Under the pieces are notes generated by a model. That model did not search any database, had not been told where the DNA came from, and worked only from the letters and a program-made list of their open reading frames with translations. A DNA stretch of 20,000 nucleotides from Psammoneis japonica (taxonomy: Eukaryota). The DNA is taken from assembly GCA_008632985.1 (NCBI GenBank), contig QPGO01000203.1, positions 107,366-127,365 of the forward strand, written 5' to 3'. The position numbers and the translations under genes were made by a program. Shown piece after piece: positions 5,561 through 20,000 of the stretch. Position 1 is the first letter of the stretch. Every line of letters begins with the position of its first letter.

Positions 5561-7273
5561 CTATATCTTGTTTGTGGCCTCAAATAATGAGGAGTCGCCT
5601 ACCCTTTGATTTCCATTGTTGTTTATACTCTTTGGTCCAAAATTGCAAAACCCCGGTCCAACCGGGCTGGCTGAAATGTTCCGTGCAAGCATTTGACATC
5701 GGAATTTAGCCACACGGTCCAATACAAGGGTACTGTTGTTGTCGTCCCCCACAATATGGTCACCACTCCATAGTCGTTCAGCTGCAGCCGATGCACGTGG
5801 CCATACGCGGCTGACGAAATTACTAGCATCCACCCGTTCTCCCCACATGCTGGCATGTCCGCCAATCACCAATTGCTTTTGCCGCAATGATGCTGCCGTA
5901 AAGTTTCGAGGCAAACATTGATGAAAATCCAAGTACCGCTTGTCTAAATGATCCAAGTACCAGCAACCCGATATCAGTACTTGGAACGAAGAACTTGTAG
6001 CTCGCTGAATCGTGTCGACATTGTAACCTTTCCAAACGTCCACAATGGCGCCGTTACTATTGGAGAGCAGACCCAGATCGAACACCTCTTGCCACACAAT
6101 TACGCTTTTCTTCTTGGAGGCAACAATCTTCAAGAACTCTTGTTCAAAATATTCGTAGAGTTGTGTTTCGTTCGTCATGTTGTGCTGTTGCATCCAGGAT
6201 TGGATGGTTGGATCATACTCCCAACAATGAAAATCAACTTCATCTCCACCCAAGTGAACAATACTATCCGGAAAGAGCTCTACAATCTCGTCATATAGCC
6301 GAGAAATAAAGCCATAAACCTTGGGTGACGTAGGATTGAGCGGTGTTGATGGTTGTGGACAGCGTGACATGAGTTCTGGATGGGACATGGCAATGGCTTG
6401 TGTATGTCCGGGCATGTCAAACTCTGGAATGACACGAATCCCTCGAAAGTAGGCTTCTTGAACCACTCGGCGAACGTCATTGGGTGTATAGACAAGGCTA
6501 GGACTAAAACTACCCTTGTCGGCCAGCTCTGGAAAATTCGACGAACGAAACGGAAACGATTGGTCGTCCGTCATGTGCCAATGCAACACGTTCATCTTGT
6601 TCATAGCCATGGCGTCCAGGGTAGTGTCCAAGATGAGTTCCAAAGGCAAAAAGTGACGAGCCGCATCAATCATGAGACCACGATGTGGATATTCCGGCTT
6701 GTCCTTGATGGCAAGTGGCGTAAAGGAAATCACAAACACGTCGTCGTGATTGCCATCATTATCACTGTTCCATCCGTACTTTACCAGCTGACCAAACGAT
6801 TCAAATCCACGAAGCATTCCAAAGACAGACTTGGACTCTAGAACTGCATTTCCAACTTGTGGTATTGTCAAAGTATATGATTCATCCATTCCTTGCTTCA
6901 ATTCCACGTTATTCGTCGACACGTAAACGTCAAGTCTTTCGAGAGCTTCCAGGGTTGTTGTTGCATTATTGTCAGGAGCAATGTTGTTGGGAGGGTTTTC
7001 GTTTGCTGATGGTATGCCCATGAACCAAAATCCCATGTATCTTTGCCGCGCCTTTTCAACAAATTCCTTTACTAAATCATTTTCTTCTGGTGCGTGAAAT
7101 TGAATCGTAAAGTGGTTTCGATCCAAGGTACGCAACAGGAAATCATTGCCAAACGTGTATTGCTCGTACCGAGCTGCAGGAAAGATTTGATGGTAGTTAC
7201 AATTATCCGTCTGGGAAATTGCTCTTGTTATGAACAGCAACACGATCCCTACAAGCATCAGGAGAGGAACCAT
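5561..7273 (-). CDS. Beta-N-acetylhexosaminidase, glycoside hydrolase family 20 (HexA/HexB-like), secretory pathway, 570 aa
   Basis: N-terminal signal peptide, then DESYTL, PHRGLMIDAARHF, NKMNVLHWH, IPEFDMPGHT, catalytic HLGGDE, WYLD and GGHASMWGE...WPRASAAAERLWS. Intronless. Confidence 0.95.
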   Translation of the reverse strand: MVPLLMLVGIVLLFITRAISQTDNCNYHQIFPAARYEQYTFGNDFLLRTLDRNHFTIQFHAPEENDLVKEFVEKARQRYMGFWFMGIPSANENPPNNIAPDNNATTTLEALERLDVYVSTNNVELKQGMDESYTLTIPQVGNAVLESKSVFGMLRGFESFGQLVKYGWNSDNDGNHDDVFVISFTPLAIKDKPEYPHRGLMIDAARHFLPLELILDTTLDAMAMNKMNVLHWHMTDDQSFPFRSSNFPELADKGSFSPSLVYTPNDVRRVVQEAYFRGIRVIPEFDMPGHTQAIAMSHPELMSRCPQPSTPLNPTSPKVYGFISRLYDEIVELFPDSIVHLGGDEVDFHCWEYDPTIQSWMQQHNMTNETQLYEYFEQEFLKIVASKKKSVIVWQEVFDLGLLSNSNGAIVDVWKGYNVDTIQRATSSSFQVLISGCWYLDHLDKRYLDFHQCLPRNFTAASLRQKQLVIGGHASMWGERVDASNFVSRVWPRASAAAERLWSGDHIVGDDNNSTLVLDRVAKFRCQMLARNISASPVGPGFCNFGPKSINNNGNQRVGDSSLFEATNKI

Positions 7274-7638
7274 CGTGGACTCTAGCTACTAGTGTTTGAA
7301 TGGATTGTAACAACAAGCGCAGCGAATGCAAAATCTTCGGTGGCGCGCAAAAACCTTGGGGCCCATTCGGGCACTGTGAGAACAGCACACGCCGCCACTG
7401 CTACCGGTATCATCAAGCCCTAAAAAATCATAACCGAATCATCACTCTTGGGCGATGCGATGCATGTTCGGTGTGCGATGCTGCTTTCATCCTCTTGCCA
7501 TCAGAGCAGCAGAGCAAGGCATACATACCGTGATCAGAGGCTGAGTGATGCGACATTACTGAACGCACCTCGAAAACGACAGGTCATCTTTCCGTCCGTC
7601 CCTGTCACGCCCACAACAGCCAGAATCCCCGGTTGGCA

Positions 7639-8889
7639 ATGAAGGCTCGTTATTGGAACCACGGAATAAGCGTCGGAATGTGGTACCATAAGCGACAATA
7701 TAAAGTTGCTGCTGTTGTTGGCCTGTTTTTTCAAGTCTCCTCGGCGCTTCACGTTGGCACCACCGCCCGCAGCGGGTATCGTTTCAAGCGTGTGGTGAAT
7801 GAGAACGAACGCAAGTCGTTGGATTCGTTTTATCGACAGCACTTTAGGAATCAAAAGAGGGTGGCCCCTCCAGCTCCAAAGGCGAGAGATGAAGTATACA
7901 GTCTCATGGATAACGAATGTTCCATCGTGGCGGCCGTCCGACTCTGCCCAGCCAGATCTCAATTTGTATTTCTGCGGTCCCTCTGTGTATCAAGGAACCA
8001 CCGACGTCAAGGTGCAGCACTGCTCTTGATACAAGAAGCTCTACACGACTACAACATGCGGCAAAGGGATGCATACTCTTGCTTTTGTTTTGCTGAGAAC
8101 AGGCTGCGCCCTCTCTATGAAAAAGCTGGCTTTTCCATCATCATGAACAAAGATTGTGTTCCTGAATGGATGTGGAGGTCGTATGAGCTTGTGGCGAAGC
8201 GCATGAAACGCAAGCATCAGGATATGCGGCTTTTTATCAAAGACGCAACAAAACAGCCGACTATCGCCATGCAAGTGGTTCTACTGCAGCATTCCAACGA
8301 AGTGAAACGACCAACTTCGACAGCGCGATTGTTCTTTGCGGCGGCGGAGGGGTACAACGAACGCCGCCAGGATCCACTGCTATCTGAGCATGTTACTGTT
8401 GACAAATGGATATGGTCCGGACGAAACGATACGAAAACAATTGAAAACAATTTGAAACAAATAATTGAACGACAAGGAATGTATCCCGTATTGGTTTGGA
8501 CCGGTGCTGGCAACACGACCTTTCAAAACAGCGACACTAAGACGGCTATTGAGGCTAGTACCCCCCTCTTTATCGTTTTGGATGGTACTTGGCAAGAAGC
8601 TCGGGGGATGTTTCGAAAGTTGTATTGTCTTCAAAAACTGCCCCGCCACACAATCATGTCCCAATCGCCATCCCAGTATCGTTTACGAAAGGATTATTCT
8701 GGTTGGCGATATCGCTTTGACGGCGGTAACCATGGCGAAAACCTGTTGTGCACGGCTGAGGTCATTGCAGCACTACTCAACGACAATGGTAACAAAGTGG
8801 GCGGAACATTGGTTCTAAATCGTCTTGATAAGTTCCAAGACGCCTTCAAAACAAGAGAAGGCGCGAGGTTGGGTTCTTATGAAGACTAA
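7639..8889 (+). CDS. GNAT acetyltransferase fused to a DTW domain (TapT/DTWD2-like tRNA acp3U transferase)
   Basis: GNAT motifs LRSLCVSRNHRRQGAALLLI and LRPLYEKAGF. DTW motifs LLQHSNEVKRPTSTARL, IVLDGTWQEARGMF, SQYRLRK and LCTAEVIA. Start is ATG 7639 or 7678; a hydrophobic leader ends VSSA-L. Confidence 0.85.
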   Translation: MKARYWNHGISVGMWYHKRQYKVAAVVGLFFQVSSALHVGTTARSGYRFKRVVNENERKSLDSFYRQHFRNQKRVAPPAPKARDEVYSLMDNECSIVAAVRLCPARSQFVFLRSLCVSRNHRRQGAALLLIQEALHDYNMRQRDAYSCFCFAENRLRPLYEKAGFSIIMNKDCVPEWMWRSYELVAKRMKRKHQDMRLFIKDATKQPTIAMQVVLLQHSNEVKRPTSTARLFFAAAEGYNERRQDPLLSEHVTVDKWIWSGRNDTKTIENNLKQIIERQGMYPVLVWTGAGNTTFQNSDTKTAIEASTPLFIVLDGTWQEARGMFRKLYCLQKLPRHTIMSQSPSQYRLRKDYSGWRYRFDGGNHGENLLCTAEVIAALLNDNGNKVGGTLVLNRLDKFQDAFKTREGARLGSYED

Positions 8890-9633
8890 GTCAGAAAATG
8901 TTGTTCCGAAAACCTTCGTTCGGAAGTGAAGTATGGTCACGCCTACAATGCTACATACCGGTATTGTAGGACGCCTTGGCGGAAAGGTACTCTCACGTTT
9001 CATACTTCTCAACGGTATGTACAGCGCAGAGTCGAACGTTTTGCTTGCGCCTTTGCTTATGTTCACTTTGGTCCTTGCAGTTTATAATCTGTTCTTTTTT
9101 AGAGAATAACATGCATCGACGCATTTGGAGCCTACAAGGAGCAATACTGAGACCGAAGAGGAAGGGCATTGCGCTAATGAGAAAATGGAGCATGGAGCAA
9201 CTGTTGGTATTATTGCTGGGATGAGGAGCTTCGATAAAACGGCACGCACGTATAGATAGAGTTGTAAGGGCTTGTCGGCCACGAGTCGGCTGCAACGCCA
9301 TGTCTGAATCAGAGAAGAAGAAGACACGACAACAAACTCAGCGGCCGATGCTGATGACGCTGACATGCCGACACTGCTCAACATGGTGACGGCTTCTTGC
9401 ATTCCAAAAACATGCTCTGTAATAGCATTCAATATTCAGTTACATCTCACGTTGACTAGCATAGTACTCTACAAATAAGGCTAGCAAAGTAGATGACAAG
9501 GGAACCGCCGACTATTACAAATTACTCTCCCTCGTGCTCATCGAGGGAGTATTAGTATTCCTAGTTTCAAACAAACACACATAGTCGATTGCAGCTCTAC
9601 CGGTACGAGCTTGATGGACGTCGACATCGCGAC

Positions 9634-10639
9634 TTACGCAAGACGGTCCTTGCGTTCATCGCTATCGCGAAGCCGCTGCTTTAGCTCCGCAATGCGCTTG
9701 TAGATGGAAGCACGATCCTCCAGCTCTGCGTCCTCCTCGCCGGGAGCCATCGTGCGAGCTCGCTTGGAAGTCTTGCGAGGCTTGACAGGGGTGGGAGGCA
9801 CAGGCCTGCCCCAAGCTAGGAGCCCAAGGTAGGTTGCAAGACGCTTGGCGAGCTCCCAATGGGTTTCGTCTTTGCGACGCCAGGTGATGATTCCACGTGG
9901 ACCGAAGCGAGCGACGAACTCAGGGTCGTCAAAAGGGAGCGACTTGAAGACATCGGTGTTCTCCCAACCCCAGTTCTTCAGAATGTAGAAAAGCCTCTCG
10001 ATCGCTTCGACATGGAACTTGTCAAAAACGTCCTTCGGCGAGGCAACTTGAAGCAGAGCAGGGAAATCCGATGGATGAATCCGTTCCAGCAACGACAGCA
10101 GCTCTGCGCCGAGTGGAGCCACCCCCAAAAAGAAGACCTGCTCGTTCCACTCGCGAAGCAAGGCCTTGTGCTTCTCCTCCCACCTTTTCTCTGCCTCCTC
10201 GCCGAGACGAAGAGCTTCCTCGTCGCCCCTCTTCGACTCCTCCAGCCTCGTCTCCACAGACAAAGCGCGTGCCACTTCCTCTCGCGCGGCGGCCCACAAT
10301 GCCTGCTTGTTTTCGAGAGCCAAGGCACATCCCGTCTTAGCCTTGCTCAAACGTTTCCCTTCGGCCTCGCTTTCCCTGCGATGCAACGTCAAAGAGCAAC
10401 GACAAGAGGTGAGTGTCGAAAGCACAGTGCAAAAATTGATCTTAATTACAGCCAAGCACAAAAACTCACGCGATCTTCTTCTCGTACTCTCGTCGCACGG
10501 TCTTGGGGTTTCTCGACGCGTTCTCCAGCACGACGTTCTTCGACCGATCCTCGTGATCAAGCTGGACATGATCGCAGATAGCGAGGAGATAACCCTGCTT
10601 CTTCTCGTCCAAAGCACGAAATGCGGCGCTCAACTTCAT
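9634..10639 (-). CDS. Orphan coiled-coil-rich hypothetical protein, 2 exons (10639-10470, 10375-9634), 303 aa
   Basis: ATG in a CCACCATG context (MKLSAAFRALDEK...). Intron 10469-10376 (GC|GTGAGT...CTCAC...CGCAG|G) joins ORF 10466..10672 in frame to ORF 9634..10617 (...EKKIA-ESEAEGKR...). Splice sites are kept in the second copy. Confidence 0.7.
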
Positions 10640-16375: not shown

Positions 16376-17110
16376 AGTAGAACGTTAGACAATAAACAGA
16401 ATAGCCAACGCATAACAAATGGCGTACTTACTGTCTCCATGAGCCTAGCGGTACTGGCACAGCCATTGGTAGTTCTCGTTCCAAGAGCAGTCGAGAACAT
16501 CCCAAACAAACCCGATGTCCTCTAGCTTTTAACGTCGTTCCGCTGACATGCCGTCCTTGTTTTGCCTCTGTGTATTTACCCATGACCCAAGAACCGTCCT
16601 GGTGGGAACCAACGCTACAATACCATAAAAACGAAATGCATAGAGTAGAACATTAGACAACTAAATCAGAATGGCCAAAGTATAACAAATGGCGACACTT
16701 ACTGTCTCCATGAATCTCTCGGTGCTGACACAGCTGTTGGAATTTTTCATTCCAAAGGTAGTCGGAAACATCCCAAACAAATCCAACGTTGTCTAGCTTT
16801 TGACGTCTCTCAGAAGGCATAGTGTCCTTCTCCTGCCTCTGTCGTAACACCCGTGGCCCAAGACTCGTCTCATCCACACTAGGAACTAACGCTGCCAGCA
16901 AAGCGCAGAAAAATGAAAAGATACTTAGATCATTGTGACAAGAGAAGAAACGAATCGAAGCACAACAAGTCGCAATACTTACTGTCTCCATGAACTACAA
17001 TGTAGAGCAACAGATTCTCATAATGTTTCTCCCACAGAAAACATCCCAAACGAAGCTCCTTTTTCCCAATTCTATTTTTCTGTCGTTGGGCCACAGGCTC
17101 AGATATTGGG
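16376..17110 (-). pseudogene. Helicase-associated (HA) repeat protein pseudogene, three exon/intron modules
   Basis: Repeats such as LVP....LG.WV..QRQ....M..ERRQKLDNVGFVWDV...WNEKFQQLCQHREIHGD. Introns 16982-16892, 16702-16615 and a truncated one from 16431 all fall at HGD-A|GTAAGT. There is a frameshift in the first module and TAA and TAG stops in the last. Confidence 0.85.
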
Positions 17111-17209
17111 CAATGCGTCAAGTCGGTACCGGCACTGTAGGGGCCCTAACAGCTGTACTGTTGGAAATGGTGAATTAAAAGTTCAAACACCGAAATCAGA
17201 TAGCACGAA

Positions 17210-20000
17210 GAAGACGCATGCGTCAGCGCTCATCATGTGCTCCACGTGAAGCACTAAAACTGCCGATGGAAGCAGTCATGTTGTTCTCTTTTAACTCTTA
17301 GAAAGCATTGTGATAACAAGCTTGTCTATTTTAGCCTCAGGATCAGACCTTAGAGGACTGAGGTGGCTCTGGAATGGTCACCAGAAGGACAAATTACAAC
17401 AGTTGAAAGAGAACAATCCAGCTGAGAGCTGTGAAAAGAAAGCAAGAAAGAAAAGAGTCGCTCTCACGGTGTGTGAGACATTTTGCTGCTTTGCCTTTTT
17501 TATCATGAGTGGAAGAGGCAGAGGAAGAACTGGCAACAGAAGCCAAGGAAGAGGACCCTCAGGAAGGGGAAACAAGAGAGCGGCAAGCAAAGCCACAAGG
17601 GCATCAATCATTGTGTCTGCTGTGTTGGAAGTGCCAAGCAAGCATCTGATTTTCAGATTGCTGCTGAGTTCATCATCAACTACATTAAGAAGACTTGTGA
17701 GTTTGGAAATGACATTGCAACTGCACTCAACACTTGCACTCCATGCGACATGAGTTCCAAGAAGCCGACTTTGCAGGTCAGCTTGGCTGGAGAGGACAAG
17801 GCAGAAGAGGTGTTGAGCAAACAGTGTGAAATTGAATTTAAGACAGAATTTGATGCTCACATTAAGAGGACCCAGACTCATGAGAACAACCTTGTCAAGG
17901 CTTGTGCTTTGCTCTGGGAGAGATGCTCCAAGGCCATGAAGAACAAGATTCAAGCAAGAACCGAGTTCCAAACCAAAATTGAAAACGATCCCATCGAATT
18001 GCTCAAGGCCATTGAGGAGCATGCATTGAACCATCAAGAGCACAGGTGTGACATGGCCATCATCTCAGATTCAATGAGAGCTGTGCTGGAAACCAAGCAG
18101 AAGGAGAAGGAGAGTCTCCGAGATCACACCAAGAGATTCAGGGTTGCAAGAGACATCATAAAGTCTCACATTGGAGGACCAATTGTCCTTACCAAGGCAG
18201 TGCAAAGCATGTCAGAACATGACGAGCACAATGCAGATGCCATCAAGAAGTGTCAAGAAAAGGCGTTCAGCCAATTGATGGGTTACGTGCACTTTGAGAA
18301 TGTAGACCAGTGCAAGCATGGATCAATTCTGACAGGATTGAACACCCAGCAGTCCCTCAAGAATGACCAACATCCCAAGTCTGTTGCAGAAGCCAACACG
18401 GTGTTGAGCAACCACACTTTTGACTGCATTGGTCAGCCTGATGACAACCGCGACAGGAACAATTGAAGCAACAACTCTGACTCCAAGAAACAAGAAGAAA
18501 GCCAAGAAATCATGATGTCCTTTGCTCAGTTAGAAGGCAAGTGTTGTTGCTGTGGCAAGGCCAGACACAATTCCAACAAGTGCTGGGAAAGGCCAGGAAA
18601 ACCTCAAGCAGAATGGGCCATCAACAAGGCCAAAGCTGAGCAAGAAACAAGCAATGCTCAAGCAAGTGACAATGTCAGCACAGCCAACTCTTCTGCCAAA
18701 GAATCCACTGGAACAAAATCTGCTGTTTCAGGATGGGCTGGCATGCACATCGACGCATCTCTCTGCCAGGATCAATCTGGCAGCATGAGAGACTGAATTT
18801 TGTTGGACAACCAGTCCACAACCATGATCTTCTGCAATGAGAAGCTTGTCACAGACATCTGTCCATTGGATGAAGTCACGCGTTTGCACGCCAAGGGCGG
18901 AGTCCAATCACAACACACAAGGCCACAGTGCCAGGGTTTGGCGAGACTTGGTTTAACCCAGATGAAATCACCAACATTTTTGCTCACTCCAACATGAAGA
19001 AGAAGCACAGGATTGCAAGTGATTCCTCACAAGACAGCACATTCACCGTTCATCTGCCTGACAAGAAGGTCAGGTTCGAGGAGGACAGAAAAGGGCTGCA
19101 CGTTTACAAGCCCAAGATTGACGACACTGGAGCTCAGCTCCAATTTGTGCAGAGTGTGGAAGAGAACAAGAAGTTCTGCACTCCACGACAGTTTGAGAAA
19201 GCCAAGAGAGCTGGGGAATCATTGCATGCATTGGGAAACCCAACTGTGAATGATCTGAAGGCCATCATTTGCATGAACAGCATCAAGAACAATCCCGTCA
19301 CAACGGAGGATGTAGATTTGCCCGAGAAGATTTTTGGACCAGACATTGGAAGTCTAAAAGGCAAGGTCACAAGGCAGAAGCTGGAGCCAGTTGCAGAAGA
19401 CTGTGTGGAGATCCCAAAGGAGCTCATTGCAGCACAGCACAAGGTTGCTCTTTGCCTGAACGGCCTCAAGGTGAATGGACTGCCATTCCTCACCACGGTG
19501 TCACAAAACATTTTTTGTTGCACTGCACAACTGCTCAAGGACTTGACAAGAAGCTCTGGAAGGTGTGCTGTGAGTCTGCAACAAGGCTGATTTGAAGGTC
19601 ATGCACATTTGTTGCGACAACAAATTCAGGCCCATTGGGAATGCACCAGAAGACAAGTTCAATCTCAAGATGAATTGCACAAATGCTCAGGAGCATGTCC
19701 CGGAAGCTGAAAGGAACAACCAAGTTATTCAAGAATGCACCAGGGCAGTCCATCATCTGCTGCCATTCAAGTGTCTGCCAAAACTCATGGTCAAAGTCGT
19801 GGTCACTGAAGCTGCTAAGAAGCTCAATTGTTTTCCAGCCAAGCACGGCATTTCCAAACATTGCAGTCCAAGAATGACTCTCCATCAAAAGAATCTGGAC
19901 TGTGACAAGAGCTGCAAGACAATGTTTGACACTCATGTGCAGGCTCACAACAACCCAGACCCCAAGAACACCCAAGAGTCACGGACTTTGGATTGCATCA
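17210..20000 (+). mobile_element. Degenerate Ty1/copia LTR retrotransposon, diatom CoDi-like (gag, Zn knuckle, protease, integrase); continues past the window end; left boundary approximate
   Basis: gag ATG at 17505 (MSGRGRGR...). CX2CX4HX4C at 18542-18583. Protease D*ILLDNQST at 18791. Pre-integrase IFGPDIGSLKGK, then integrase core CDNKF...EHVPEAERNNQVIQE...LNCFPAKHGIS. The protease-then-integrase order is copia-type. Several frameshifts, and TGA stops at 18464, 18794 and 19571. Confidence 0.93.

Follow-up and report, generated by a model that had tools for sequence, protein, structure and literature searches.

The open reading frame at positions 7639-8889 on the forward strand of the window (the whole 20,000-nucleotide stretch of Psammoneis japonica DNA that was analysed) encodes a GNAT-DTW fusion protein behind a hydrophobic leader. 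We propose that the gene is nuclear and specifies a diatom enzyme with two tRNA-modifying activities. The DTW domain would make acp3U by moving the 3-amino-3-carboxypropyl group from SAM onto N3 of a uridine in tRNA, and a GNAT domain of the AcpA family would go on to acetylate the free alpha-amine, with acetyl-CoA as the donor, to give acacp3U. The leader, read as a signal peptide with cleavage at ...SSA|L followed by a basic, hydroxylated stretch, would direct the protein to the four-membrane plastid, where its targets would be plastid-encoded tRNAs. We put the probability of this whole explanation, a nuclear-encoded, plastid-targeted, bifunctional acacp3U synthase, at about 0.6; the coupling of acp transfer to N-acetylation on an RNA, taken by itself, appears fairly probable. 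What the analysis shows are the domain identities, the conserved motifs, the family membership and the recurrence of fusion and gene adjacency; which reactions take place, in which sequence, on which substrate position and in which compartment is what we infer.

The frame runs without a stop for 416 codons from the ATG at 7639 and ends in a TAG/TAA-type stop. A second in-frame ATG (M14, 7678..7680) also lies 5′ of the hydrophobic core of the leader, and a start there would give a classic signal-peptide n-region, MWYHKRQYK; a TTG at 7633 is the sole in-frame start between the upstream stop and the ATG at 7639. The protein has 25 relatives at E<=1e-3 in a word-indexed search and 257, including 43 at E<=1e-30, in an exhaustive search of cluster representatives, and the ORF is thus not a chance one. 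It is colinear with 33 fused relatives from the leader through the C-terminus, so that no intron need be invoked and the gene is apparently intronless. The continuous translation, the Pfam matches to both domains and the colinear relatives bear out the original prediction of an intronless ORF joining a GNAT domain to a DTW domain with a DGTW motif. Eight other ORFs in the window were tested and gave no Pfam match, and no tRNA gene was found in it.

The fusion is conserved among relatives. Precomputed Pfam annotation places both domains in 17 of the 25 relatives from the first search, including Cyclotella and one MMETSP transcript that carries the two domains in a single ORF typed "complete". 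A scan of 58 further relatives gave 35 with the order GNAT-DTW, 4 with DTW-GNAT and 1 with DTW-GNAT-DTW, the uncultured sequences showing the two domains fused in both orders; among the relatives, Cyclotella, Fragilaria crotonensis and MMETSP/EukProt entries are the only ones that bear names. The catalytic motif sets of both halves are retained throughout, with DGTW, T372, E221 and Y160 each present in 34/34 fused relatives. For the reversed fusion P0164, a search sensitive to close relatives only returned none from bacterial and archaeal genomes. Some related DTW proteins are fused to GIY-YIG nuclease domains.

The GNAT half occupies about aa 46-202 (7774..8244, forward strand). Pfam recognises only part of it, with matches to Acetyltransf_10, Acetyltransf_7 and Acetyltransf_1 over aa 88-170 (E 6e-7 to 3e-6, each above cut-off), and in NCBIfam the protein matches no specific family, the GNAT models giving only weak scores far under their cut-offs. 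The AlphaFold2 model (mean pLDDT 81.8), however, predicts a complete GNAT fold across about aa 46-202, which aligns with the whole small GNATs 5jq4_B and 5jph_A at TM 0.79-0.80 on the target, and the claim of a complete GNAT domain is therefore upheld at the level of the predicted fold. Near its N-terminus lies the family motif SFYRQHF (7825..7845), where bacterial stand-alone members have FYK or FYR; F64 and Y65 are each kept in 33/34 fused relatives. The segment RRQGAA (8002..8019) corresponds to the R/Q-x-x-G-x-A/G acetyl-CoA-binding loop of GNATs and is conserved among fused relatives (R122 in 33/34, G125 in 32/34, and either A or G at position 127 in 33/34). The segment LYEKAGF (8113..8133) holds Y160, where GNATs usually have their general-acid tyrosine; Y160 is present in 34/34 fused relatives and is invariant over the bacterial and eukaryotic members in alignment A2. 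In the same alignment, the AcpA-family motifs FY(K/R), LRxLCV, CYCF and P..(W/L)...Y span the full length of the GNAT.

The family of this GNAT was determined with two profiles, A2, built from bacterial and fused members, and A3, built from the eukaryotic fusions only. The Vibrionaceae compared were V. mimicus, V. furnissii, V. harveyi, V. atlanticus and Parasalinivibrio. Profile A2 found exactly one strong full-length match per genome in 5/5 Vibrionaceae (103-117 bits, runner-up <=50), each time between murB(-birA-coaA-tuf-secE-nusG-rplKAJL-rpoB) and pssA. With A3, the murB-pssA GNAT likewise ranked first among the GNATs of 4/4 Vibrio genomes at 43-61 bits, the runner-up reaching 35.6 bits in one Vibrio genome and <=27 in the others; the GNAT half and the Vibrio protein are thereby reciprocal best hits in all 4. 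Alignment of the GNAT half with the Vibrionaceae proteins of this slot by hhalign gave a probability of 99.6% and an E value of 3e-24 over 114 columns. Published locus tags of V. cholerae place tuf-secE-nusG-rplKAJL at VC0321-0327 and rpoBC at VC0328-0329 (PMC12993453, PMC13220821). Counting down from tuf at VC0321, murB, birA and coaA would be VC0318-0320 and the murB-pssA slot would be VC0317. VC0317 is AcpA, whose deletion abolishes acacp3U and raises acp3U (bioRxiv 10.1101/723049). By synteny and published locus numbers, the murB-pssA GNAT is thus presumably AcpA.

On these matches we assign the GNAT half of the fusion to the AcpA family rather than to GNATs in general, the same small family as V. 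cholerae AcpA, which narrows the proposed chemistry considerably. The original prediction placed the GNAT in no particular family and cited AcpA as an enzyme apart from it; by our assignment the GNAT half is itself an AcpA-family domain. Short stand-alone GNAT relatives did not score in the word-indexed search with aa 45-195 and were recovered by the exhaustive search of cluster representatives. A search of the named protein collection with A2 gave 23 matches, the only names among them being Pseudoteredinibacter, Cellvibrionaceae, Thiomicrospira and Thiomicrorhabdus; the absence of Vibrio from these matches reflects a limit of the word index.

The hydrophobic leader ending in VSSA-L that had been claimed is indeed found, as VAAVVGLFFQVSSA at aa 23-36 (7705..7746, forward strand) followed by L37. 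Read by eye in a leader that AlphaFold2 models with low confidence, the core covers aa 23-33, with the small residues S34 and A36 at -3/-1 of a putative cleavage site after A36 and before L37; in the model, the leader forms no more than one short helix (aa 21-29), with pLDDT <50 over aa 1-20 and 27-43. The site is followed by a short transit-peptide-like stretch, LHVGTTARSGYRFKRVVN, at aa 37-54 (7747..7800, forward strand), recognised by sequence reading under the criteria of PMC4329603, which is basic and hydroxylated (3 S/T, 4 R/K, 0 D/E). Under the ASAFind rule (PMC4329603), the first residue after cleavage is F, W, Y or L, and here it would be L37, provided that cleavage falls after VSSA. 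Only about 12-18 residues separate the putative cleavage site from the start of the GNAT fold; transit peptides of 12 residues are on record (PMC4329603).

In the leaders of relatives, the site is for the most part A|F, A|Y or A|L. A first heuristic, which took the earliest -3/-1 site beyond the hydrophobic core as the cleavage site, gave F/W/Y/L at +1 in 12/38 relatives (p 0.06) and F/W/Y in 4/38 (p 0.26), neither of which is significant. This heuristic was dropped in favour of a motif-versus-shuffle test because it frequently stopped at a site that lay ahead of an obvious A|F one. In the latter test, a -3/-1 site followed by F/W/Y past the hydrophobic core occurred in 22/42 relatives' leaders, against a shuffle mean of 12.7 and with 0/2000 shuffles reaching 22, where the leaders, being those of related proteins, are not independent samples. 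Targeting of the fusion protein to the plastid is thus plausible and no more than moderately supported, the leader of this protein itself giving weak evidence, with the leucine at +1, the enrichment of A|aromatic sites and the report of acp3U47 in land-plant plastid tRNAs (PMC6895100) on one side, and the non-significant first heuristic and 12/70 relatives with no clear hydrophobic core on the other; we consider a plastid location to have a little better than an even chance.

The alternative that the enzyme is bifunctional but works outside the plastid, on mitochondrial, periplastidial or cytosolic RNAs, or from a start that omits the signal peptide, is unlikely in our judgement. The L instead of F at +1, the very short transit-like stretch, the outcome of the first heuristic and the coreless relatives all speak for it, as do the N-termini of the Cyclotella proteins, which are rich in R/S/T/H and resemble a mitochondrial or ambiguous presequence; acp3U47 has moreover been reported in land-plant mitochondrial as well as plastid tRNAs (PMC6895100). 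However, M1 and M14 both precede the hydrophobic core, it is not evident what an RNA-modifying enzyme would act on in the ER or the secretory lumen, relatives show an enrichment of A|F-type sites, and the ASAFind rule also allows L.

The DTW half (8257..8886, forward strand) is a DTW (TDD/SPOUT-like) aminocarboxypropyltransferase domain that has no N-terminal zinc finger. Its match to Pfam DTW PF03942 over aa 207-386 (E 1.3e-24) scores 87.5 bits, where the cut-off is 33.7, and covers profile positions 23-176 of 195; its PDB match is to E. coli TapT (YfiP/TuaA), the acp3U47 synthase of entry 9kyt (E 5e-8). The DTW/SPOUT-like fold is common to both proteins, Foldseek aligning the AlphaFold2 model with TapT-SAM (9kyt_A) at E 6e-6, 25% identity and TM 0.60 on the target. 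The residues of TapT that have conserved equivalents in the fusion fall into three segments. First, LLQHSNE...TSTARL (8281..8331) contains E221 and T228, which align with TapT E63 and T70 and are present in 34/34 and 33/34 fused relatives, respectively; T70 contacts the SAM carboxylate (PMC12630136). Second, DGTW (D315-W318, 8581-8592), kept in 34/34, aligns with TapT D137-G-T-W140 and is followed by EARGMFRK (the two together 8581..8619), which corresponds to basic patch 2, the tRNA-binding patch formed in TapT by R144, R148 and K149 (PMC12630136). R326 and K327, the equivalents of R148/K149, are found in 32/34 fused relatives. In the D/E-x-S/T-W motif the Asp is catalytic and the Trp caps SAM (PMC12630136, PMC7704012). 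Third, LCTAEV (8746..8763) holds T372, equivalent to TapT T182, which adjoins the SAM sulfonium (PMC12630136); C371, T372 and E374 are present in 34/34.

The fusion differs from TapT in several respects. The CxxC..CxC zinc finger (C31/C34/C41/C43 in TapT) is absent from the window protein and from all fused relatives (0/34), and basic patch 1 is missing as well, whereas both are required for tRNA binding by TapT (PMC12630136). TapT P111, which stacks on the SAM adenine and without which the E. coli enzyme does not bind SAM properly (PMC12630136), is replaced by T288; over the 34 fused relatives this position is T in 26, A in 4, K in 2 and V in 2, and never P. The fusion also has an additional SGWRYRFDGGNHG loop. 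The GNAT takes the place of the zinc finger and the N-terminal basic patch and thus probably has a part in gripping the tRNA as well.

The same two families occur side by side as separate genes in gammaproteobacteria. At 8 of the 30 best AcpA-family loci a DTW gene is directly adjacent, 5 of these 8 pairs being co-directional with overlapping ends and 3 divergent, and the adjacency recurs in two further genomes and one MAG. The pair in Pseudoteredinibacter (L002, 7258-7938 and 7935-8417) is an example of this unfused counterpart, for which we found no paper and which appears to be uncharacterised. The adjacent bacterial DTWs keep the CxxC..CxC zinc motif (8/8 order-sample pairs), unlike the fusion, and 9 of the 10 compared are closest to the p3/C5 lineage rather than to the fused clade. 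GNAT-linked DTWs form several separate lineages on the DTW tree, so that the coupling of DTW to GNAT is a recurrent and independent one.

These pairs bear on a second alternative, which we regard as quite unlikely, that only the DTW half is catalytic and that the GNAT is a tRNA-docking or structural module in place of the zinc finger, the product being plain acp3U, such as plastid acp3U47. The GNAT indeed sits exactly where TapT has its zinc finger and basic patch, and the report on land-plant plastid tRNAs in PMC6895100 is of acp3U, not acacp3U. However, the acetyl-CoA loop and the tyrosine are those of active GNATs (R122, G125 and Y160 in 33/34, 32/34 and 34/34), and the domain belongs by our assignment to the family of the Vibrio protein on which acetylation depends. 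Since the bacterial GNAT adjoins DTWs that have their own zinc finger, docking alone does not explain the pairing.

On the DTW tree, the fused proteins form a separate, long-branched lineage (branch 0.86, SH-aLRT 88) with family-specific changes, namely LWTGG in place of FP and an SGWRxRF insertion, and E. coli TapT groups with the Vibrio paralogue p2 (SH-aLRT 89), apart from this clade. By HMM score, the fused DTW is nearest to the Vibrio paralogue p1 (87-110 bits), followed by p2/TapT (59-73) and p3 (49-58). The tree singles out no bacterial paralogue as the source of the fused clade, and an identification with p1, favoured by these scores, was not retained. Equating p3 with VC1980 and p1 with VC0131 would rest only on rough chromosome positions and is not relied on. 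A different substrate or chemistry (an rRNA uridine or pseudouridine, another acyl donor or another amine) is suggested by the long branch with its LWTGG and SGWRxRF changes, by the joining of related DTWs to GIY-YIG nuclease domains and by the presence of the rRNA enzyme Tsr3 within the DTW superfamily (PMC4275035, PMC6895100), but seems improbable to us given that the best bacterial matches are tRNA-type DTW paralogues and TapT rather than Tsr3-like proteins and that AcpA, the sole characterised member of the GNAT family, acts on acp3U in tRNA.

The reading we prefer, that the fusion makes acp3U and then acetylates it, accords with the original prediction, which gains support, all of it comparative, from the AcpA-family GNAT, the recurrent linkage and the retained motifs. 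In V. cholerae the DTW paralogues VC1533 (TapT), VC0131 and VC1980 are unlinked to acpA, and the two-step chemistry, acp transfer and then N-acetylation, would be expected to be alike in the two systems. The arrangement differs, the Vibrio acetyltransferase being a stand-alone protein of 141-148 aa unlinked to DTW genes, whereas the diatom has one polypeptide with an organelle-type leader. To our knowledge, acacp3U has so far been reported from Vibrio only, and AcpA, in Vibrio alone, is the only genetically identified enzyme of its synthesis, for the acetylation step. Which enzyme writes acp3U at the positions that Vibrio acetylates (20b and 46) is a matter of guesswork in PMC6895100.

Human DTWD1 and DTWD2, Arabidopsis DTWD2A and AT1G03687 are likewise eukaryotic DTW proteins for acp3U in tRNA, among whose features, as described in the relevant sections of PMC6895100 and PMC7704012, an acetyltransferase domain does not appear. 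AT1G03687, a TapT-like protein predicted to be chloroplastic, has been proposed for plastid acp3U47 (PMC6895100, PMC7704012), a nucleoside reported in land-plant plastid tRNAs (PMC6895100). A GNAT fusion is not mentioned in PMC4275035, PMC7026641 or PMC6895100 by term search of their text, and we found no description of a GNAT-DTW fusion in the literature searched on DTW, GNAT and acp3U, and no paper on acp3U in diatoms. We know of almost no study of tRNA modification in diatom organelles.

Taken together, the GNAT-DTW fusion, the fusions of reversed or triple architecture and the paired genes of bacteria tie AcpA-type GNATs to particular DTWs in the manner of a "Rosetta stone", a link that yields testable bacterial candidates and predicts acetylated acp3U in diatom organelles. 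A wider scenario, which we hold tentatively and rate somewhat short of an even chance, is that acacp3U extends beyond Vibrio, made by a dedicated DTW and AcpA module that is widespread among gammaproteobacteria and was welded together in diatoms and uncultured eukaryotes, where the GNAT would have replaced the zinc finger and the product would be handed between the active sites on plastid tRNAs. If so, non-TapT DTW paralogues would be the missing writers of the acetylated positions, and acetylated acp3U in plastid tRNAs would be the first such nucleoside in a eukaryote. The fusion also offers a system for studying how a SPOUT-type enzyme swaps its RNA-binding module, and a single polypeptide for both steps, if it is one, would be a handy tool for writing acacp3U in vitro. 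In other respects the gene is that of an ordinary housekeeping-type enzyme.

The gene at window 7639–8889 (+) is one uninterrupted frame of 416 codons; between the upstream stop and the first ATG the only further start is a TTG at 7633, and an additional in-frame ATG (M14) follows at 7678. Pfam places GNAT acetyltransferase models at aa 88–170 (E ~6e-7) and the DTW domain PF03942 at aa 207–386 (E 1.3e-24), all above the curated cut-offs, with the DGTW motif at aa 315–318. With 34 aligned fused relatives as input, AlphaFold2 gave a model of mean pLDDT 81.8 in which both domains are confident and aa 1–43, at the N-terminus, are of low confidence. Foldseek pairs the N-terminal domain with whole small GNATs (TM 0.79–0.80 on target); for the C-terminal domain it gives the E. 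coli TapT–SAM structure 9kyt (25% identity), and TapT was also recovered by a PDB sequence search (E 5e-8). The leader VAAVVGLFFQVSSA occupies aa 23–36 and is followed by L37. Given this evidence from the ORF, domains, fold, DGTW motif and leader, the original prediction, i.e., a single frame with a GNAT and then a DTW domain behind a hydrophobic leader ending in VSSA-L, was correct in every particular.

The fusion also recurs in relatives. A word-indexed search returned 25 relatives with a top identity of 54%. Precomputed Pfam annotation places both GNAT and DTW in 17 of them, among which is an MMETSP transcript whose ORF is typed as complete. Those relatives that have names are diatoms: Cyclotella, Fragilaria crotonensis and MMETSP/EukProt entries. 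When 1.84 billion cluster representatives were searched exhaustively, 257 matches reached E ≤ 1e-3, a low figure for a DTW query, which marks a distinct subfamily. Among the 58 listed matches taken into a Pfam architecture scan, GNAT precedes DTW in 35, the order is reversed in four (P0056, P0074, P0153, P0164), and one (P0064) reads DTW-GNAT-DTW; the others are DTW alone (six), DTW with a GIY-YIG nuclease domain (three) and GNAT alone (nine, partly fragments and partly true small proteins). Automatic annotations already carry the architecture, e.g., the JGI name 'DTW domain-containing protein YfiP/predicted GNAT family N-acyltransferase'. The three GIY-YIG proteins (P0116, P0117, P0128) belong to the same large DTW clade, with the nuclease domain C-terminal (E 1e-14 to 2e-15), and form their own branch (SH-aLRT 98) beside the GNAT-fused sequences. 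P0064 (755 aa) and P0175 (816 aa), which share a cluster, combine a full-length zinc-motif DTW, an AcpA-type GNAT and then another DTW, zinc-less and of the fused type; such a protein could make acp3U at two sites and acetylate both.

The GNAT half could be assigned to a known family. Along their whole length, three GNAT-only relatives (148–157 aa) have motifs in common with the diatom domain, namely FY(K/R)…, LRxLCV, R/QxxGxA/G, CYCF, FY…GF and a C-terminal P…Y, and one such stand-alone relative led to gammaproteobacterial genomes. Named Vibrionaceae loci were located with a PCR primer, and five genomes (V. mimicus, V. furnissii, V. harveyi, V. atlanticus and Parasalinivibrio latis) were then searched with the GNAT family profile. 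Each contained exactly one strong full-length match (103–117 bits, the next GNAT at ≤50), in all five between murB and pssA, and two regions read whole have the order rpoB-rplLJAK-nusG-secE-tuf / coaA / birA-murB / GNAT / pssA. In V. cholerae, VC0321–VC0327 are reported as tuf-secE-nusG-rplKAJL and VC0328–0329 as rpoBC (PMC12993453, PMC13220821). Carrying the order over from the other Vibrionaceae and these locus numbers, we infer that VC0318–0320 are murB, birA and coaA; counting downward from tuf (VC0321), the GNAT slot is therefore VC0317. This locus was named acpA in a 2019 preprint reporting that its deletion abolishes acacp3U and raises acp3U (bioRxiv 10.1101/723049). In the reverse test, a profile from the 34 eukaryotic fusions alone ranked the murB-pssA GNAT best in four of four Vibrio genomes (43–61 bits), with the runner-up at 35.6 bits in one and ≤27 in the others, and hhalign of the eukaryotic profile against the five Vibrionaceae proteins gave 99.6% probability (E 3e-24, 114 columns). 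Since the single matches, the slot count, the reverse test and hhalign agree, the N-terminal domain is filed in the AcpA family. As a side observation, E. coli K-12 (2719223–2724082) has tapT, then patZ (an acetyltransferase with a GNAT domain), then pssA; the Vibrionaceae GNAT likewise lies directly beside pssA, and thus a DTW or acetyltransferase gene adjoins pssA in both. The trxC-DTW-patZ-pssA-yfiM operon was treated in another context by a 2025 paper (PMC12419801).

Stand-alone family members are repeatedly found next to DTW genes in bacteria. In Pseudoteredinibacter, the GNAT gene (7935–8417) overlaps the end of a DTW gene (7258–7938) by four bases. The stand-alone profile matched 27 of 400 sampled gammaproteobacterial genomes at E ≤ 1e-5, about seven of the matches being full length, and of the four best loci, three have a DTW gene immediately next to the GNAT (one co-directional, two divergent). 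When another 301 genomes from the same gammaproteobacterial order were sampled, 48 had one family GNAT at E ≤ 1e-15; among the best 30 loci, eight have a directly adjacent DTW gene (five co-directional with overlapping ends, three divergent) and 22 have none within 1.5 kb on either side, nor does any DTW gene adjoin the murB-pssA GNAT in the five Vibrionaceae genomes. Because DTW genes number only one to three per genome, this adjacency is, on an informal estimate, far above chance. By BLAST, the nearest lineage for nine of ten GNAT-adjacent bacterial DTWs is that of Vibrio DTW paralogue p3 (p3/C5), and for one it is p1/TapT, and CxxC..CxC is kept in all eight adjacent DTWs checked from the 301-genome sample. 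Pseudoteredinibacter itself has two DTW genes, the canonical p3/C5 type scoring 155 bits to Pfam and the GNAT-adjacent one 125 bits, much as Vibrio has several DTW paralogues.

On a tree of 139 DTW domains (IQ-TREE quick search, with SH-aLRT as the sole support measure), GNAT-linked DTWs sit in several places. The large fused clade comprises 108 rows (88); reversed fusions of the P0164 type are sister (92) to a lineage containing the gene pairs of two bacterial genomes (G332, G268) and Vibrio p3 (95); Vibrio paralogue p2 and E. coli TapT fall together (89); and the DTW of the Cellvibrionaceae pair falls near TapT (85), its exact place not being fixed by the tree. That the pairing recurs, in varied arrangements and lineages, is the best reason to think that both activities act on one substrate. 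In a rival reading, rated unlikely, the pair would use a different substrate or a different acyl group; against it stands the kinship with AcpA, which acts on tRNA acp3U.

The catalytic residues are well conserved. Across the 34 fused relatives, DGTW, T372, E221, H218 and C371 of the DTW half are invariant and R326 and K327 are kept in 32, while the GNAT half retains Y160 in all 34, R122 in 33, G125 in 32 and an A/G at position 127 in 33. In an alignment, the equivalents of TapT E63, T70, D137–W140, R144, R148/K149 and T182 are kept in the diatom protein. In contrast to TapT, however, it has neither the zinc finger (present in 0/34 fused relatives) nor the N-terminal basic patch, both implicated in TapT tRNA binding (PMC12630136); it carries an extra loop, SGWRYRFDGGNHG; and Thr replaces TapT Pro111, whose mutation was reported to abolish SAM binding (PMC12630136). 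The GNAT domain stands where TapT carries the N-terminal module lost from the diatom DTW, which suggests that it may also dock tRNA. A rival reading goes further, taking the GNAT as a docking module only and plain acp3U as the product; against this stand the conserved GNAT residues and the AcpA kinship.

The analysis shows which domains are present, the families they belong to, that their motifs are conserved and that their genomic coupling recurs; from this we infer both reactions, their order, the target RNA and position, and the compartment as follows. Once the protein is imported and its leader removed, the DTW domain would bind SAM via D315, T317-W318, T228 and T372 and alkylate a tRNA uridine at N3. 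The AcpA-type GNAT beside it would then bind acetyl-CoA via R122–A127 and, with Y160, acetylate the newly made alpha-amine. The diatom gene is best described as encoding a fused, probably organellar, likely two-step acacp3U synthase, a variant of known enzymes. AcpA, TapT and DTWD1/2 were each characterised as separate proteins, whereas here a single polypeptide is encoded; full-text literature searches, and the main texts of PMC4275035, PMC7026641 and PMC6895100, brought up no account of GNAT fused to DTW or of paired DTW and AcpA genes.

The leader's hydrophobic core is followed by small residues at −3 and −1 and then by L at +1, where F, W, Y or L is the ASAFind condition for plastid candidates (PMC4329603). 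The 18 residues after the putative cleavage site include three S/T and four R/K, acidic residues being absent; a 12-residue transit peptide is documented (PMC4329603). Many relatives have clearer sites (SFA|FP, SWA|FS, VHA|FS, CQA|FS, CFA|YS, SFA|LQ). A heuristic taking the first −3/−1 site, which plainly misplaced several sites, gave no significant result (F/W/Y/L at +1 in 12/38, p 0.06; F/W/Y in 4/38, p 0.26). A −3/−1 site followed by an aromatic occurs in 22 of 42 leaders against a shuffle mean of 12.7, and none of 2000 shuffles reaches 22, although the effective sample is smaller because several leaders are close relatives. Among 70 Met-starting GNAT-DTW relatives, 18 leaders are shorter than 25 residues and 12 are without a clear hydrophobic core, and those of the Cyclotella group look ambiguous. 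Plastid targeting of this protein is rated slightly better than even, the rival being that the same enzyme works in another compartment. A plastid location would be biologically sensible, since acp3U47 is reported in land-plant plastid and mitochondrial tRNAs (PMC6895100).

Across the gene, GC is even at ~0.47–0.49; no tRNA gene was found in the window, and eight other long window ORFs gave no Pfam match. Two long ORFs overlap on opposite strands at 9634–10617 (−; 311–327 aa) and 9859–10581 (+; 240 aa), in the GC peak of the window (0.555 at 9501–10500), and no Pfam match was obtained for them, the 311-aa product being the one scanned. At ~17000–20000, where the Pfam scan of ORFs was likewise without matches, AT skew is strong and sustained (maximum +0.27 at 17501–18500), unlike the remaining window. 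The upstream neighbour, at 5561–7273 (−), encodes a 570-aa GH20 beta-N-acetylhexosaminidase (Glyco_hydro_20 E 5e-90, with an N-terminal b2 domain) that is transcribed divergently across a 365-bp spacer and has its own secretory-type leader, MVPLLMLVGIVLLFITRAISQ|T.
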